Positions 25,388 to 31,486 of a DNA stretch of 64,000 bases are shown here, one piece after another. The position numbers were made by a program, and so were the translations under genes. This stretch comes from Bacteroidia bacterium (lineage in GTDB: Bacteria > Bacteroidota > Bacteroidia > Palsa-965): positions 284,198 through 348,197 of the forward strand of contig JALONL010000006.1 of assembly GCA_025454955.1 (NCBI GenBank), written 5' to 3'. How positions within the stretch are numbered: the first letter of the stretch is position 1; every line of letters starts with the position of its first letter. The notes beneath the pieces are model-generated. The model worked only from the letters and a program-made list of their open reading frames with translations. It ran no database searches and had not been told where the DNA came from.

Positions 25388-26890
25388 TTATTGCACAAAG
25401 TACATTTCAATGCGGCCTTTGTTTTTGGCTTCAATTTTTCCGCGATACAGGCAGTTGTATTGATTACCGATAAGCTGAAAGGTATTGCCGGAAATATTGA
25501 TTTGTCCCGATTCAGAATTTTGTTCCATGCGTGCAGCCACGTTCACGGTATCGCCCCAGATATCGTACTGGAATTTATGGTTGCCCACCACGCCGGCAAT
25601 GAGCGGGCCGGTGTTTATGCCAATTCTGATATGAAATGCGGAAGGGTTTTGCTGCAGCCTTTCGTTGGCAAATTCCATCATTTCGCGGGCTGCTTTTACC
25701 ACATCGGTGGCGTGAGACTGATTGGCCACGGGCAATCCGCCCACGGCCATGTAGGCATCGCCAATGGTTTTAATTTTTTCAATGTTATTGCGGCGGATAA
25801 TCTGGTCGAATGCCTGGAAGTACACGTCGATTTCCTTTACCAGTTCTTCGGGCTTCATTTTTTCGGCCATGCCGGTAAAGTTTACGAAGTCTGAAAAAAG
25901 TACGGTGGCCGAATCGTAGTAGCGGGTGGTGGCCTTGCCCTGATTCATGAGCTCGTTGGCTGTTTCTTCGGGCAGGATGTTAAGCAGCAGGCGGCGCGAT
26001 TTGTTTCTTTCTTCTTCAATAACCTGCTTTTGTTCGAGAATTTCGTCGTAGCTTTTTTTCAGTTCAATATTGCGCAGGCGGAAAATTTCGTTGTCTCTTT
26101 CGCGAAGCGTTAGTTCGTGTTTAATTTTTTCCTGTTCGGCTTTCTGTTCGGCCAGGGCGAGTTCTTTTGTTTGCCTGGCCAGGATAATTTCGGCCCGGGT
26201 AATGGCAATATTGAGGTAATAGGCCCATATTCCGATAAAGCAGAACGAGAGAATAATATTCGACACATTAAACCAGCCCAAAGCTTCGGCACCGATGGCG
26301 TAAAGTGGAGAAATTTGCACCAGAAACAACTGTATGTAGAGGAATCCGGCCGTACAAAGCAGCAGCAGTGAGGTTTTCCAGATTACACTGCCGCCGGGCA
26401 TGAGAAACGGAAAAATGGCCACTACCGGAATGAAATACTGAAACCCTGCATCCACCCCAAGAAACATTACCGCCACAATCTGATGCAATACAATTTCGGA
26501 AAGCGAAATAGTCATGCTCACCATGTGATAGGCAAACCGGTTAAACACAATAGCCGCCACATAACAGGCCACACTGAAAAGCTGAACCCAGGCCAGCGGC
26601 TCCACATCGAGATAAAGCAGCACAAAAAACCAGCCGAGGTGTGCCATCCAGGCACCTGTTTGCGCTACGTTGGCCACCACATAAAACCTTGAGTTTTGTA
26701 TGGCCACACGACGCGGAAGAGTATCAAAATGCAGGTATAGTTTTACAAGCAGGCTCCACAGCCATCTCAAAGGTTGCATGATGAAAATTGGTTTGGCTCC
26801 GTGAAGATCGGGTTTTGTGATAATAATCATCGAATAAAAAACTCCCGGCATCAAAACATTTTTCAGATTTTTACGTTTTTGCAAGTACAT
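25388..26890 (-). CDS. Class III adenylate/guanylate cyclase with multi-TM N-terminal sensor region and coiled-coil linker
   Basis: A 500-aa ORF with ~6 TM helices and a coiled coil (LALAEQKAEQEKIKHELTLRERDNEIFRLRNIELKK). The cyclase homology domain follows (VLFSDFVNFTGMAEKM...IGDAYMAVGGLP...IGINTGPLIAGVVG..KFQYDIWGDTVNVAARME). Confidence 0.85.
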   Translation of the reverse strand: MYLQKRKNLKNVLMPGVFYSMIIITKPDLHGAKPIFIMQPLRWLWSLLVKLYLHFDTLPRRVAIQNSRFYVVANVAQTGAWMAHLGWFFVLLYLDVEPLAWVQLFSVACYVAAIVFNRFAYHMVSMTISLSEIVLHQIVAVMFLGVDAGFQYFIPVVAIFPFLMPGGSVIWKTSLLLLCTAGFLYIQLFLVQISPLYAIGAEALGWFNVSNIILSFCFIGIWAYYLNIAITRAEIILARQTKELALAEQKAEQEKIKHELTLRERDNEIFRLRNIELKKSYDEILEQKQVIEEERNKSRRLLLNILPEETANELMNQGKATTRYYDSATVLFSDFVNFTGMAEKMKPEELVKEIDVYFQAFDQIIRRNNIEKIKTIGDAYMAVGGLPVANQSHATDVVKAAREMMEFANERLQQNPSAFHIRIGINTGPLIAGVVGNHKFQYDIWGDTVNVAARMEQNSESGQINISGNTFQLIGNQYNCLYRGKIEAKNKGRIEMYFVQ

Positions 26891-26898
26891 TTCAACCC

Positions 26899-27495
26899 AT
26901 GAATCAACCCGATTACCACGCCGCAGCCTCGTATATGCTGCAAAAGCTTGATATGAGCCTGCCGGCGAATTATCATTACCACAATACCGCCCATACGGTT
27001 CAGGTACTTGATTCGGTGGAGATCATTGCACGCGGCGAAAATATTGCGGAGGATAAATTATTGCTGCTTAAAACTGCTGCGGTGTATCACGATTGCGGTT
27101 TTATGGAACAGTATCAGACTAATGAACCCGTAGCCGCCCGTATTGCAGGAGAAGTATTGCCTCAATTCAATTATTCGGCCGATGAGATTGAATTTGTGAA
27201 GCGGCTCATTCTGGTTACCGCAATTGGTGCCGAACCTGCTGATATTTTCGAAGAAATTATGAAGGATGCCGATTTCGATTATCTCGGTACCGAAAATTAT
27301 GCGCCGGTTTCGTTGCTGCTTAAAAAAGAATGGGAAACCCAGGGTATGACCTACTCCACTGCCGACTGGTTTTTGTTGCAACAAAAATTCCTTACCAATC
27401 ATCGCTATTACACAGCTACTGCGCAGCAACTACGCAACGCAGGCAAGCAAAAAAACCTCGCCGATATTGAACAGCAACTCATGGCCTTGCATTAG
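26899..27495 (+). CDS. HD-domain metal-dependent phosphohydrolase (candidate cNMP phosphodiesterase)
   Basis: A 198-aa ORF with H..H...D and the AAVYHDCGF HD motif. It is divergent from the two cyclase genes. Confidence 0.6.
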   Translation: MNQPDYHAAASYMLQKLDMSLPANYHYHNTAHTVQVLDSVEIIARGENIAEDKLLLLKTAAVYHDCGFMEQYQTNEPVAARIAGEVLPQFNYSADEIEFVKRLILVTAIGAEPADIFEEIMKDADFDYLGTENYAPVSLLLKKEWETQGMTYSTADWFLLQQKFLTNHRYYTATAQQLRNAGKQKNLADIEQQLMALH

Positions 27496-27510: not shown

Positions 27511-27551
27511 AAAAAAGAGGCTGTCTCAAAAGGTCGAGACAGCCTTTTTTT
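27511..27551 (+). terminator. Rho-independent terminator of the HD gene (the hairpin is built partly from the left IS inverted repeat)
   Basis: AGGCTGTCTC-AAAAGGTC-GAGACAGCCT followed by TTTTTTT, 16 nt after the HD stop. Confidence 0.6.
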
Positions 27552-27610
27552 GTTTGTACTCGTTTTTGCCACAGAGTTGGCAATCTTTTCTAAAAAAAGA
27601 GTTTCCCCTT

Positions 27611-29167
27611 TCAGTTTTTCGCACTTCGTGCGGCTTTTTTAGCCAGATTGTGTGCAATAGCGATTAATCCGGTCTCGATCTGTACTTTTTCCAAGCCACG
27701 TAGCATAAATCGTTTAAAACCTTTGTTGTGTTTGATCTGAGCAAACACAGGTTCAATCTCCACCGGTCGTTTCTTGCGGCGGATTATCCCTTTTTCACTG
27801 GTAAGTCGTTGTGCCGCTTGTTGCTTATATAATCGTAACTGATGATTGATCTGCACTTCCCTGTCGTGTTTACTCTGATGGCACTTTTCTCTCAAGACAC
27901 ATCCCTCACAAGATAAAGCACGATAATGCGTAATTACTTGTTCATATCCACTGTCATTCTTACACTTTCTTGTCCCCACATTATATAGTGTTTGTTGGGC
28001 CGGACAAGTGAGTGTATCAGTCTGTTCGTCGTAATGAAGCTGATTGACTGCAAACGGATTCTGCTTGTGTGGGCTGCGTTGCTCGCGGTCAAAGTGATTG
28101 TACTTTACAAAGTTCTCTACTTTTTCTTTTTCCAGATAAGCGTAATTCTGTTCCGATCCATAACCCGCATCGGCTGTTACTGCGGCAGGTGTTTGTTGAT
28201 AAAGCGTGCGATAGTGTTCAAGATGCTTGATTAATGCTTGCGTGTCGGTGGTTAACTGGTGGATGGTATAATTTACAATGTACTGGTTGTTACTGCTCAC
28301 TTGTAAATTGTAAGCGGGCTTGAGTTGCCCGTTGCGCATGTGATCTTCTTTCATGCGCATAAAGGTGGCATCGGTATCGGTTTTACTAAAGCTGCTGCGC
28401 TTTTCCCCTGCATTAATAAGACTTTCCTGATGCTGGTATTTACGAAGATTATCGGGCCAGTGTTTACGGGCGTAATTCAGTTTCTGTCGCACCTTGGGAT
28501 CCGTCGGCTTTTCGGCCAAGGTCTGATCAATGCGGGCGATGGCCTGTGCCACCTGTTCAGGATCGGCAGGATCAAATTCAAGCGGTGCCGTATCGGCCTC
28601 TTCTTCTTTAGCTACTTGTTGTGCATACGCCCAAAGACTGTCTATTTGCTCTTTAATACGTTCACGCCCCCGACTAATGTTTTTGCCCCATACAAAAGTG
28701 TAACGGTTGGCGTTGGCCTCTAACTTGGTGCCATCAGTATAAAGGTCGCGGATGTCTAACAAGCCCTCTGCACTTAATAGCTGAACAATTTGTACAAAGA
28801 TTTCTTTTAGTGGTGCTGCCAGGCGTTTTGACCGAAAGCGATTGATCGAGTTGTGATCGGGACGAGCCATGCCCGAGAGCCACATAAAATGAATGTTTTC
28901 TTTTAGCGCAGCTTCCAGTTTGCGGCTGCTGTAAATATTGCTCAGGTAACCATAAATCAGCACCTTGAGCATCATCTTCGGATGGTAGCTGGGCGCTCCG
29001 CCTCCTTGATAGGCCTCTTGTAAGGGACGGATGCTTATCGAGTCAATTACTTGATTAACAACCAATACAGGGTGGTTCGGCTCGATAAGTTCTTCCAGAC
29101 TCGGAGGAAGTAACTGCGCCTGCTGCGGAATGTAATCTTTAAAGATTACTTTTGTCGTTGATAGCAC
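27611..29167 (-). CDS. IS1182-family (IS5-like, DUF772 N-terminal domain) DDE transposase
   Basis: A 518-aa ORF with the N-terminal signature ...HPKMMLKVLIYGYLSNIYSSRKLEAALKENIHFMWLSGMARPDHNSINRFR characteristic of IS1182/ISL3-like DUF772 transposases. A C-terminal DDE region follows (LYTDGTKLEANANRYTFVW...ADAGYGSEQNY). Confidence 0.85.
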   Translation of the reverse strand: MLSTTKVIFKDYIPQQAQLLPPSLEELIEPNHPVLVVNQVIDSISIRPLQEAYQGGGAPSYHPKMMLKVLIYGYLSNIYSSRKLEAALKENIHFMWLSGMARPDHNSINRFRSKRLAAPLKEIFVQIVQLLSAEGLLDIRDLYTDGTKLEANANRYTFVWGKNISRGRERIKEQIDSLWAYAQQVAKEEEADTAPLEFDPADPEQVAQAIARIDQTLAEKPTDPKVRQKLNYARKHWPDNLRKYQHQESLINAGEKRSSFSKTDTDATFMRMKEDHMRNGQLKPAYNLQVSSNNQYIVNYTIHQLTTDTQALIKHLEHYRTLYQQTPAAVTADAGYGSEQNYAYLEKEKVENFVKYNHFDREQRSPHKQNPFAVNQLHYDEQTDTLTCPAQQTLYNVGTRKCKNDSGYEQVITHYRALSCEGCVLREKCHQSKHDREVQINHQLRLYKQQAAQRLTSEKGIIRRKKRPVEIEPVFAQIKHNKGFKRFMLRGLEKVQIETGLIAIAHNLAKKAARSAKN

Positions 29168-29291
29168 AACGCAAGACTAATCAACTTGCAAAGAATGGGA
29201 GCTTCGGCTCCTTTCTTTTTTTCAACACGTTTTAAATAAAAAGAGGCTGCCCCTTTTGAGACAGCCTCTTTTTTATGGGCGTTTCATTGGT

Positions 29292-30128
29292 TTACTGACC
29301 GGCAATGAAGTAGGCTATTTTGGAATTGGTAATGTTTAACGGGTTTACAATCATTACCGGTATTTCGGCTTCGTTGGTAATGGCTTCGCGTTCGGCGGTG
29401 CCGCTGAGCAGTTCGTGAACGCCGCGCTCCTGTGTGTTTACCACGGCAATAAGATCTGCATCTACAGAGGTGGCAAACTGAAGCATTTGTTTTACAAAGT
29501 TTCCGCTTTCGGTGGCGGCGTGTACTTCGCAGTCTATTTTATTCTTTTTGAGTTCGGCGTGTGCGTAGTTTGTATTGCGTTCGATGGCATTTTTCACAAA
29601 CTGATCGGATTCGTGCTGTGAGAAAATGTACACTTTGGAGCCGAAGTACTGGGCCATTTTGATGGTCAGGTTGAGGTTATGTTTCGACTCTTTGGTAAGG
29701 TCCATGGGGAGTACAATTTTTCCATAGCCGTTTCGCGGGGCGCGTTCCTGCACCACCACAAATGGGGTGTTGGAGTTGGTAATTACTTTCACGGCATAGC
29801 TTCCCAGTATGTGCTGCACGCCTTTTACGCCGTGTGTGCCCATGAAAATAAGTTTGGCGCCAAGCGTTTCGGCCACACCGCCGATATCGTCGAAAATATT
29901 TCCTTCGCGGGTTACCGTGGTTACGGCAATTCCGGTGCGTTCGGTTGCTTTCTTTGCCAGAATATCTAATTTCTCCTGCGCTTTTGCACGGTCTTTTTCT
30001 TTGAGAATAACATGGAGCAGCACTACCGAGCCGTTTACGGTTTTTGCCACCGAAAGGGCATGTTCAAGCGCACAGTCTGCAACGGGAGTAAAATCGGTGG
30101 GTACCAGAAAGATATTGGAAGAAGACAT
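29292..30128 (-). CDS. Universal stress protein, tandem UspA domains
   Basis: A 278-aa ORF with two USP modules (…VVLLHVI…, …GTHGVKGVQHILGSYAVKVI…, …LIAVVNTQERGVHELLSGTAEREAI…). Confidence 0.8.
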   Translation of the reverse strand: MSSSNIFLVPTDFTPVADCALEHALSVAKTVNGSVVLLHVILKEKDRAKAQEKLDILAKKATERTGIAVTTVTREGNIFDDIGGVAETLGAKLIFMGTHGVKGVQHILGSYAVKVITNSNTPFVVVQERAPRNGYGKIVLPMDLTKESKHNLNLTIKMAQYFGSKVYIFSQHESDQFVKNAIERNTNYAHAELKKNKIDCEVHAATESGNFVKQMLQFATSVDADLIAVVNTQERGVHELLSGTAEREAITNEAEIPVMIVNPLNITNSKIAYFIAGQ

Positions 30129-30217: not shown

Positions 30218-31486
30218 CTAAATACTCCGGTTACCGGCAAGTATGGTTTCCTTGTAGGTTTTGATAAACGATTTTATGCTGCCAATATCCCACTCTGTAT
30301 TAAGATCAAACCCAACCTGATCGAGTGTATCCACATAAGTTAAAAGCGTATTACGCGGCGTGTTCATTTCATCGAAAAGTGCATCGTCTGATGCTTTTTG
30401 AAGTTTCAGAAGCGATTTTAAAGCGGTATCAAGGCATAAAGCGAGTGCTGATTTTTTGATGGTCACAAATGTTTCGGGGCGGATATTTCCCAAAATGCTG
30501 TTTTCAATTTTCCATCCGAGCAGGTGTGCATCTTTTTCTATTTCCAAACTGCGGTAAGCGGAAACAATTCCTTCCATAATTTCAAATGGCTTGTATATTT
30601 TTTTCGGATTCAGCGCATCGGTACAGGTTTTAATTGAATCATCAGCATCCTTCATGGTTTTTGATGCCCCTGCGGTAGAGTTTAATTTTGTTTTCAGATC
30701 TTTGGCAAGCGCCCGTAAGTGTTTGGAGATGGGATCGAGTGAGGCAATGAGCATCTTTTCGGCTTCGGCGGCTATCATACCTAATTTTACTACATCTTTC
30801 TGAGCCGCATCACCTTTGTGCCTGCTGTCGTACCATTTACAAGCCTGCTGATCGTTGCCCGAATCGGCTGTTACTCCGGCTTTGACTTCGAGAAATAATG
30901 CATCCGGTATTCCCAAATCATGTGTAATGCTGGCTTGTGATTTATTTTTTGCCACAGCCCACCTTACCGAACGCACCAACTGTTCGGCATGACGCAATTC
31001 GTGAAAAACAGCGCCCATAATCAGAGCCGAGTTTTCGCTGTTTACGCTTTCGGTTGGTGTAGAGGCACCTACAATAAGCTCCCAGGTACTCCAATCGAGT
31101 GCCCCGTCGCCGGCAACAATTTCGGGATCGATGGCTATTTTTGGGGGCGTTACTTTTAATTGTTGAAAAAACGTCCCCGCAAAATCTATTACTGCTTTAG
31201 TGGCAATTTCCGCATAGACGGGGCAAAGCAAAAGGTTGGCTCCAATTTTCCCGGCCATTTTTACATAAGGTGTAAACACATCTGGATTATCAAGGCTTAC
31301 CGCACGCTGCACAACTCGCTGTGCACCTGGCATTGCAGATGGCGTGAGCCGGTTTTCGGGTTGCCCGGATAGCATGATGGCACCCGACACCAGCACCGGT
31401 GCCGGAAAAGACAACGCCTGCTTACCTGATTCACCGGCGGCAGGTTGTGACTGATTTACCCTGTTGGCTTGCTCATGCATCGGCAT
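30218..31486 (-). CDS. Hypothetical protein (422 aa) with HExxH zincin-like motif (FHELRHAEQ) and a disordered N-terminus; no signal peptide
   Basis: Long ORF. A single HELRH..Q motif sits at about residue 165. The first ~60 aa are low-complexity and proline-rich (MPMHEQANRVNQSQPAAGESGKQALSFPAP...). Confidence 0.45.
   Translation of the reverse strand: MPMHEQANRVNQSQPAAGESGKQALSFPAPVLVSGAIMLSGQPENRLTPSAMPGAQRVVQRAVSLDNPDVFTPYVKMAGKIGANLLLCPVYAEIATKAVIDFAGTFFQQLKVTPPKIAIDPEIVAGDGALDWSTWELIVGASTPTESVNSENSALIMGAVFHELRHAEQLVRSVRWAVAKNKSQASITHDLGIPDALFLEVKAGVTADSGNDQQACKWYDSRHKGDAAQKDVVKLGMIAAEAEKMLIASLDPISKHLRALAKDLKTKLNSTAGASKTMKDADDSIKTCTDALNPKKIYKPFEIMEGIVSAYRSLEIEKDAHLLGWKIENSILGNIRPETFVTIKKSALALCLDTALKSLLKLQKASDDALFDEMNTPRNTLLTYVDTLDQVGFDLNTEWDIGSIKSFIKTYKETILAGNRSI

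Follow-up and report, generated by a model that had tools for sequence, protein, structure and literature searches.

An insertion sequence (IS) that lies between two genes and carries a terminator-like hairpin at each of its ends raises the question of whether it brought these hairpins with it or landed in a hairpin that was already there. Such an element occurs in a 64,000-nucleotide stretch of a Bacteroidia bacterium genome (GTDB lineage Bacteroidota; Bacteroidia; Palsa-965; assembly GCA_025454955.1, contig JALONL010000006.1, positions 284,198 to 348,197; hereafter the window), where it separates convergent genes encoding an HD-like protein and a universal stress protein (Usp). An initial annotation described it as an IS1182-family element with 23-bp perfect inverted repeats and posed the two explanations as alternatives. 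Our comparison of alleles indicates that both are correct and that only their mutual exclusivity fails: a native terminator present in an IS-free allele has been deleted from the window, and hairpins belonging to the IS now occupy the terminator positions. We consider it very probable that this IS, which belongs to the ISMsp1 subgroup within the IS1182 family, landed in the shared bidirectional terminator by the stem-loop-replacing mode known from IS1272, and that its end modules likely stop incoming transcription.

The search for an empty site was made by exact-sequence look-ups of both flanking proteins. One locus recovered in this way, L082, matches the window exactly. The other, L083, comes from another metagenome and encodes identical HD-like and Usp proteins from adjacent genes with no transposase between them, in flanks that are ~99% identical to those of the window. 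The L083 junction reads CACTACG-AAAAAAG-CCCGGAC-GAAAAATT-GTCCGGG-CTTTTTT-ATGGGCG, and the corresponding sequence in the window reads CACTACG-AAAAAAG, then the IS (beginning AGGCTGTCTC and ending GAGACAGCCT), then CTTTTTT-ATGGGCG, such that the two alleles match through the AAAAAAG heptamer and diverge after it. What lies between AAAAAAG and CTTTTTT in L083 is CCCGGACGAAAAATTGTCCGGG; the same place in the window holds the IS. The native L083 hairpin, AAAAAAGCCCGGAC-GAAAAATT-GTCCGGGCTTTTTT, folds at -26.4 / -22.9 kcal/mol (z -6.8 for the -26.4 fold, about -6.5 overall) and is, by prediction, a textbook bidirectional intrinsic terminator common to the convergent HD-like and Usp genes. The empty-site comparison that the initial annotation had proposed therefore places a native terminator exactly at the insertion point. 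Relative to L083, the window is missing a stem-loop of 22 nt, or of 24 nt if the junction G and C are counted as part of the stem, and the deletion would extend to as much as 36 nt if the A and T tracts belong to the IS. No target-site duplication (TSD) is present when the occupied and empty alleles are compared, as had been noted from the occupied allele alone. The existence of both alleles, the loss of the hairpin and the lack of a TSD are thus observed directly. The opposite polarity, in which the IS was ancestral and was later swapped exactly for a perfect terminator hairpin, is implausible.

The same comparison redefines the ends of the element. The inverted repeat, AAAAAAGAGGCTGTCTCAAAAGG at 27511-27533 and CCTTTTGAGACAGCCTCTTTTTT at 29252-29274, extends over 23 nt with no mismatch, as originally described except that the element had been given an end coordinate of 29275, which overshoots by one base; in 100 dinucleotide-preserving shuffles of the window, no match to this repeat occurred at ≤3 mismatches. 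The outer 7 bp of each arm, however, are already present in the uninserted target, and the IS-specific repeat is consequently 16-17 bp long. The concern that the 23-bp match might include flanking non-IS sequence was accordingly justified for those 7 bp and not for the remainder. At the left junction, AAAAAAG (27511..27517) is common to the IS arm and to the A-tract foot of the native terminator, leaving its origin ambiguous, and at the right junction CTTTTTT (29268..29274) is likewise common to the IS arm and the T-tract foot. The unambiguous IS body, defined by the occupied and empty alleles, spans 27518..29267 on the minus strand (1750 bp), within a maximal extent of 27511-29274 (1764 bp). 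Its specific inverted repeats lie at 27518..27533 and 29252..29267, each 16 bp, or 17 bp if G27517 and C29268 are included. These two bases are family-conserved termini and are probably part of the IS, given the conserved core termini in 141 of 161 relatives. A reading in which the 23-bp arms are the two halves of the target hairpin, with the IS inserted in its loop, was rejected, as the GAGGCTGTCTC core accompanies the transposase in different phyla and between unrelated flanks.

A second pair of alleles shows the same exchange. An element from human-gut Bacteroidales (L165), whose transposase is ~48% identical to that of the window IS, has flanks that are palindromic over 15 nt and neighbors an MscS-like gene, of which an IS-free allele (L169) was found through P0002, a protein 97% identical to the MscS-like flank protein of L165. 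(With the exact flank protein, P0001, the sole find was a 2.3-kb contig truncated within the IS end.) The empty allele contains ATATGAAAAG-ACTGTCTTTGTAAATGAAGACAGT-CTTTTCATAT and the occupied allele contains ATATGAAAAG, the IS and CTTTTCATAT. At finer resolution, the empty sequence is ATAAAAATATGAAAAG-ACTGTCTT-TGTAAATG-AAGACAGT-CTTTTCATATTTTTAT, which forms a 25-bp stem (-31.9 kcal/mol), and the occupied sequence is ATAAAAATATGAAAAG, the IS from AGGCTGTCTC to GAGACAGCCT, and CTTTTCATATTTTTAT. The apical 22-24 nt have been swapped for the IS, the outer A/T stem is retained, there is no TSD, and the junction falls between AAAAG and CTTTT, as it does in the window.

Some further features of these gut loci were recorded. 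The stem of the replaced L169 hairpin (1619-1642), GACTGTCTT / AAGACAGTC, resembles the IS core, GAGGCTGTCTC / GAGACAGCCTC, a likeness that could reflect chance, target preference or the relic of an earlier IS-derived hairpin; the native hairpin of the window locus (GCCCGGAC) bears no resemblance to the core. L161 and L165 have a right flank in common (98.7% identity over 4.2 kb, including the IS) and unrelated left flanks, and L159 and L160 have a common left flank but not a common right one, patterns suggesting that IS copies in gut Bacteroidales have recombined with one another and caused rearrangements. At ~800 nt to the left of the L165 element, an ISL3-like transposase is encoded.

To extend these observations beyond two loci, we collected relatives whose transposases are 47-59% identical to that of the window IS, 80 loci from genomes and 80 from metagenomes. 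An exact-protein look-up for further copies of the window IS returned the same locus only, and scans of genomes and metagenome contigs found no other copy, only relatives at ≤59% amino acid identity. The search for other genomic copies urged by the initial annotation thus came back empty, and multi-copy relatives were compared in their stead. In five genomes with 2-6 near-identical copies, the similarity boundaries give one architecture throughout: a core of the GAGGCTGTCTC(A)AAAG type and then, moving inward, a short loop, an arm of partial complementarity and a T-run, with the other end mirrored. Because the sub-terminal hairpins fall inside these boundaries, they belong to the IS. This core is present at both ends in the 141 loci mentioned above. 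Flank positions beyond 2-3 nt vary among copies of one IS within one genome, which identifies the flanks as target sequence.

The flanks of the 120 loci for which both were available resemble the feet of terminators. No TSD-like repeat was found in 105 of them, and the remainder have repeats of only 1-2 nt. The left flank is rich in A, with 85-92% at positions 1-2, ~70% over positions 3-5 and ~57% over positions 6-8, and the right flank mirrors it in T. The enrichment covers ~8-9 nt, and both flanks reach background by ~10 nt. Runs of complementarity of at least 8 between left and right flanks occur in 10.8% of loci versus 1.1% of shuffled pairings (permutation p < 0.0002). A palindromic TSD was considered and rejected, since each flank repeats the other in inverted and not in direct orientation (e.g. 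L005). In 127 of 167 flanks, the nearest gene is aimed at the IS (p = 9e-12), the distance from stop to IS has a median of 27 nt, and 39 of 66 elements lie between convergent genes, compared with 2 of 66 between divergent ones.

Other observations concern individual relatives and their assembly. Three identical copies in an Acidobacteriota metagenome-assembled genome (CP065003; L068-L070) have exact GAGGCTGTCTG...CAGACAGCCTC ends and flanks that hold GC-rich hairpins resembling repetitive extragenic palindromic (REP) sequences (ggggctttagcccc, gccggctgaagccggc), and the 11 nt beside the left end of L070 are the reverse complement of the 11 nt beside the right end of L068. Flanks are perfectly palindromic beyond the IS ends for at least 29 nt in L109, on a contig of 2319 nt, and for at least 15 nt in L158. 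These elements either inserted into palindromes of great length or are artefacts of fold-back during assembly on short contigs. Short-read (Logan) assemblies break inside the IS end hairpins in L001 (at ~27522), L084 (at 27545) and L170 (within the IS end), which could reflect the inverted repeat itself or coexisting occupied and empty alleles; as a practical matter, elements of this kind fragment assemblies at terminators.

How the exchange would proceed is suggested by the model published for IS1272. Wan et al. 2017 (PMC5678879, Fig. 13) propose an attack by the 3'-OH ends of the transposon on the 3' feet of two extruded stem-loops, with loss of the hairpins; were the 5' feet attacked, the stem-loop would be duplicated in full (PMC5678879). 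By analogy, the transposase of the window IS would recognize a hairpin or cruciform, not a sequence, its 3'-OH ends would attack the 3' feet of the extruded stem-loops, and the hairpins would be lost as flaps. The apical stem-loop of 22-24 nt would thereby be removed and the IS joined after AAAAAAG and before CTTTTTT without target duplication. The end modules would then most likely stop transcription coming from the neighboring genes, shielding the transposase gene (tnp) from read-through at its 5' end and from antisense transcription at its 3' end, and the HD-like and Usp genes would regain a terminator in place of the one destroyed.

The structure of the ends is in keeping with this last step. 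The left terminal module (27511..27551, plus strand), which is the 3' end of the IS relative to tnp, consists of the core GAGGCTGTCTC, a loop, the inner arm GAGACAGCC and T7. Its hairpin arms, 27512-27527 and 27536-27551, are followed by the T7 tract, and it folds at -24.2 kcal/mol on the plus strand (z -5.65) and at -22.0 kcal/mol on the minus strand. The right terminal module (29238..29274, minus strand), at the 5' end relative to tnp, has the form A6-GAGGCUGUCUC-AAAA-GGGGCAGCCUC-U5 with arms at 29238-29249 and 29262-29273; because it contains two G.U pairs, it is more stable on the minus strand, which is the strand of Usp and tnp (-25.1 kcal/mol, z -6.2), than on the plus strand (-16.8 kcal/mol). 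A hairpin at each end had been proposed originally and is borne out by these values, which far exceed those of shuffled sequences in stability and match the folding energies of the native L083 terminator. Both modules have the layout of intrinsic terminators, the left one on the plus strand 16 nt past the HD stop with T7, and the right one on the minus strand 17 nt past the Usp stop with T5ATTT, and a terminator scan flags the left hairpin on both strands. The proposal that the left end doubles as the terminator of the HD gene is therefore upheld, but its restriction to one end is not, as the right end folds best on the Usp strand. From their positions, the left module is predicted to act as the terminator of the HD-like gene and, on the minus strand, to be able to terminate tnp as well, and the right module is predicted to terminate Usp and to form a barrier upstream of tnp. 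An Rfam search with these sequences gave sub-threshold matches only, to leader families containing terminators.

Additional hairpins lie just inside the ends. Two more terminator-like hairpins with T-runs on the plus strand, at 27566-27583 and 27619-27633, the latter overlapping the last tnp codons, form with the left terminal module a stack of three inward-facing terminator-like sites. Between the right module and the tnp start, a GGGAGC-TTCG-GCTCC hairpin (29197-29212) is followed on the plus strand by TTCTTTTTTT, where it is terminator-like and outward-facing (antisense); on the minus strand it would lie in the 5' untranslated region of tnp. Solo end modules or derivatives resembling miniature inverted-repeat transposable elements were not found in the window at ≤3 mismatches.

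The inward orientation of the end modules is general among the relatives. In 110 distinct relatives, the 5' end folds at -20.4 kcal/mol on the inward strand versus -13.8 on the outward strand, and the 3' end at -21.5 versus -14.6 kcal/mol (Wilcoxon p ~3e-19 for each, values that overstate independence because the sequences are related, although the direction is uniform). The inward advantage, ~6.7 kcal/mol, has the same orientation at both ends, and 96-98% of the modules fold at -15 kcal/mol or better, compared with ~1% of shuffles. Anchored on the aligned core, 220 modules show compensatory changes at core positions 3, 5, 6 and 9: position 5 is paired as C-G in 183 and as G-C in 26; position 6 as T-A in 120, C-G in 63 and T-G in 34; and position 3 as G-C in 156, A-T in 21 and G-T in 42. 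On average there are 2.6 G.U pairs per module on the inward strand and 0.33 on the outward strand. A T-run of at least 5, measured as the longest T-run downstream of the core, is present in 84% of modules; a plain count of T after the predicted stem carried no information, since in the minimum-energy fold the T-run is paired with the A-run of the flank. Since G.U pairing is a property of RNA and not of duplex DNA, these data point to selection for terminating transcripts that enter the IS from either side. Terminator activity of the end modules is what we infer from sequence, folding, covariation and strand asymmetry.

Several points weigh against the conclusion that the IS replaced a stem-loop in the manner of IS1272 and brought terminators with it. 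The ends of the window IS are defined from one pair of occupied and empty alleles together with relatives that share no more than 59% identity. Because each junction has a 7-nt identity, the deletion may have any length from 22 to 36 nt, and a process assisted by microhomology would also fit. A/T-run flanks are absent from the Acidobacteriota relatives L068-L070, indicating that A/T feet are a preference and not a requirement. The strand asymmetry was measured on related sequences, as stated above, and the outward-strand hairpins are still reasonably stable, such that the end hairpins may have a DNA-level role, for instance in transposase binding or cruciform formation.

The last of these points is the basis of the alternative that fares best, in which the sub-terminal hairpins are chiefly DNA-level signals, either for transposase binding or as cruciform ends that mimic the targets, and their likeness to terminators is a by-product. 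The hairpin is built from the inverted repeat that the transposase must bind, and recognition of one shape both at the ends and in the hairpin target would be economical. Moreover, the IS1272-like element L168, which has weak hairpins and no T-run, indicates that strong terminators are not essential to the chemistry of the family. The G.U excess of the inward strand and its ~6.7 kcal/mol advantage are, however, properties of RNA, whereas duplex or cruciform DNA would be symmetric, and a DNA signal does not account for the strand asymmetry. In addition, 84% of the modules have a T-run of at least 5 after the stem. We therefore regard a chiefly DNA-level role as unlikely, though it keeps a real share of the probability, and the two roles may coexist.

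The remaining alternatives concern the insertion itself. In one, the host palindrome was broken first, by nuclease cleavage of the hairpin or cruciform or by a replication accident, and the IS integrated into the double-strand break. Insertions of IS elements that lack a TSD and are accompanied by deletions have been interpreted in this way (bioRxiv 10.1101/2024.06.02.596822), and both of our allele pairs lack a TSD and have lost target DNA. The events in that preprint, however, are large rearrangements (62 kb) and involve other, much smaller elements, whereas the loss described here is symmetric, is limited to the apical stem-loop and has its junctions at the same position between AAAAG and CTTTT in both pairs. 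The bias toward terminator positions throughout the family and the IS1272 data (PMC4923244, PMC5678879) further indicate a property of this transposase family and not one general to IS elements, making a pre-existing break improbable.

A second possibility is that recombination, not transposition, copied the IS into place via the 7-nt AAAAAAG and CTTTTTT microhomologies, through template switching at a fork stalled by the hairpin or through microhomology-mediated repair. The identity of IS arm and target is exact over 7 nt at both window junctions and covers 5-6 nt in the second pair, and the flanks of the relatives are A/T-rich. This idea is contradicted by flanks that differ beyond 2-3 nt among copies of the same IS in one genome and by the Acidobacteriota copies, which lack A/T feet; the transposase gene is also intact and conserved. 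In addition, IS1272 targets are dissimilar in sequence (PMC5678879), and A/T feet are simply what bidirectional terminators look like. We give recombination very little credence. Least tenable is canonical insertion into the terminator loop with a small TSD and later deletion of the stem halves, which has nothing specific in its favor beyond being the default expectation for a DDE transposon and is effectively refuted, as it requires two independent and exactly symmetric deletions to the stem feet at each of two unrelated loci, the ~99% identity of the allele flanks leaves little time for them, and none of the 120 relatives keeps GC-rich stem halves or a TSD beside the IS.

Stem-loop replacement by a transposase is the explanation we retain. 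The single open reading frame between the arms, 27611..29167 on the minus strand, is an intact 518-amino-acid DDE transposase gene, assigned to IS1182 by NCBIfam NF033551, Pfam domains and likeness to ISMsp1. Its match to NF033551 ("IS1182 family transposase") reaches 431 bits, above the cutoff of 270, and covers model positions 2-487 of 488, with PF05598 (DUF772) at residues 57-127, PF13751 (DDE_Tnp_1_6) at 387-510 and PF01609 (DDE_Tnp_1) at 262-508, in agreement with the family assignment first made for the element. A 2015 review by Siguier et al. is said to give IS1182-family elements terminal inverted repeats, lengths of ~1.3-1.95 kb and direct repeats of 0-60 bp. With specific repeats of 16-17 bp, a length of 1750-1764 bp and a TSD of 0 bp, the window element fits these ranges. 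We conclude that it is a new, intact and recently inserted member of the Bacteroidota-type ISMsp1 subgroup that, as judged from its sequence, is apparently active.

The genes on either side of the element are both transcribed toward it. On the left is the HD-like gene (26899..27495, plus strand; 198 amino acids; Pfam HD 20.4 bits, below the cutoff of 22), and the A-run of the left arm begins 16 nt after its end at 27495. On the right is a gene encoding tandem universal stress protein domains (29292..30128, minus strand; 278 amino acids; Pfam Usp 95.7 bits), with 17 nt between its stop and the right IS end. The genes are convergent with the IS in between. To the left of the HD-like gene are two adjacent adenylate/guanylate-cyclase-domain genes, one of 500 amino acids (25388-26890, minus strand) and one of 709 amino acids with a 7TMR-DISM domain; together with the HD-like protein, they may form a cyclic-nucleotide signaling neighborhood. 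A hypothetical protein of 422 amino acids encoded downstream of Usp (30218-31486, minus strand) has 420 amino acids in IS-free L083, in which an indel region begins ~2.2 kb to the right of the insertion site; such differences are usual between strains and have nothing to do with the IS.

These results have consequences for how such elements are understood and annotated. Stem-loop replacement operates also in the distant and very widespread Bacteroidota-type branch of IS1182, as documented by two direct pairs of alleles and ~120 loci. Apparent terminal repeats overestimate the true IS ends because the A/T feet of the target extend them, and a missing TSD does not mean that an element has decayed. 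The inward-facing modules suggest how the loss of a host terminator to one of these IS elements need not lead to read-through between convergent genes. A more speculative extension, which we think doubtful but worth stating, is that the ISMsp1 subgroup constitutes a "mobile terminator cassette" whose ends would have evolved to mimic the foot of a bidirectional terminator (A-tract-G ... C-T-tract), such that the same transposase surface would recognize both the IS ends and the target hairpin, and each transposition would swap a host stem-loop for two inward terminators. In a stronger version, excision may reciprocally reseal the donor site or re-deposit a hairpin there. If correct, this would represent a fitness-neutral landing strategy not described for DDE transposons, one that leaves host transcription units intact, and could explain the wide spread of the ISMsp1 subgroup in Bacteroidota.

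The closest named relative of the window IS is ISMsp1, from plasmid pSD15 of Microscilla sp. PRE1 (NC_002806.1), which is in the same size class (1749 bp), has the same termini (AGAAGAGGCTGTCTCAAAAG...) and has end hairpins that are likewise biased inward (-19.0 / -18.9 kcal/mol inward versus -8.6 / -10.5 outward). By ISfinder convention, elements are the same IS above about 95% amino acid or 90% nucleotide identity. The transposases of the two elements are 57% identical over 512 residues, and the window IS is therefore not ISMsp1 itself but a distinct, unnamed IS of the same subgroup. In the literature searched, we found no description of the target choice or end structure of ISMsp1, nor of inward terminator modules in the ISMsp1 group or in IS1182.

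Terminators carried by, or associated with, IS elements have precedents. IS200 has a bidirectional terminator at its left end that acts against impinging transcription (PMC4513863), and a 2026 survey, which does not mention IS1182, found an excess of terminator-like sequences immediately upstream of IS elements and within them, and a preference for convergent gene pairs in half of IS families (PMC13548323). The functional logic of the IS200 terminator and of this enrichment (PMC13548323) matches what we propose here. IS200 differs, however, in having an unrelated HUH/Y1 transposase and a terminator at one end, whereas the window modules are built from the inverted repeats, are present at both ends and both face inward. 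Palindromes are also sought out by other mobile elements. Bacterial group II introns of class C home to sites adjoining intrinsic terminators. REP-targeting IS elements such as ISPpu9 use extragenic palindromes as landing sites that spare genes (PMC1525189, PMC8450116). In both of these systems insertion is within or next to the palindrome, which is kept, often with a TSD or by retrohoming, whereas the hairpin at the window locus is excised and replaced.

The closest mechanistic parallel is IS1272/TnSha1 of staphylococci, itself a member of the IS1182 family. Furi et al. 2016 (PMC4923244) found its integration to be always into hairpins, several of which were confirmed as terminators by RNA-seq, with the stem-loop partly deleted and no duplication. 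Wan et al. 2017 (PMC5678879) name this mode "IR-replacing", "stem-loop-replacing" or "cut-paste-and-cut" and give 16-bp inverted repeats and target inverted-repeat structures of 21-85 bp that do not resemble each other in sequence. For the targeting of palindromes by some IS1182 members, both papers refer to the Siguier 2015 review. At the level of sequence, the window element matches IS1272-type replacement in every respect, in that the target was a hairpin, the stem-loop was lost and there is no TSD. The two also have in common the family, hairpin targets that are mostly terminators with little sequence specificity, and repeats of ~16 bp, the IS-specific 16-17 bp found here corresponding to the length reported for IS1272 (PMC5678879). 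The window deletion of 22-24 nt lies within the target range given above, and the repeat cores of IS1272-like L168 (GAGTCTGGGACATAAA) and the window IS (GAGGCTGTCTCAAAAG) are identical at 10 of 16 positions. The elements nevertheless differ in several ways. Their transposases are only ~33% identical, and the relatives of the window IS are of Bacteroidota type, whereas the host of IS1272 belongs to the Bacillota. In both of our allele pairs, the junctions lie at the A-tract and T-tract feet, and the U-tract context is kept. L168 (33% amino acid identity) has palindromic flanks and only weak sub-terminal hairpins with no T-run, whereas the window group has strong inward modules at both ends. The sections of PMC4923244 and PMC5678879 drawn on here call the target hairpins terminators and do not describe replacement terminators carried by the IS. 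The insertion mode is thus already published for IS1272, and the window element is a well-documented new example of it and not a new phenomenon. What is modestly new is that the mode extends to a large clade outside the staphylococci, that the junction falls consistently at the A/T feet of bidirectional terminators, and that conserved, RNA-asymmetric, inward-facing terminator-like modules are present at both ends of the IS.

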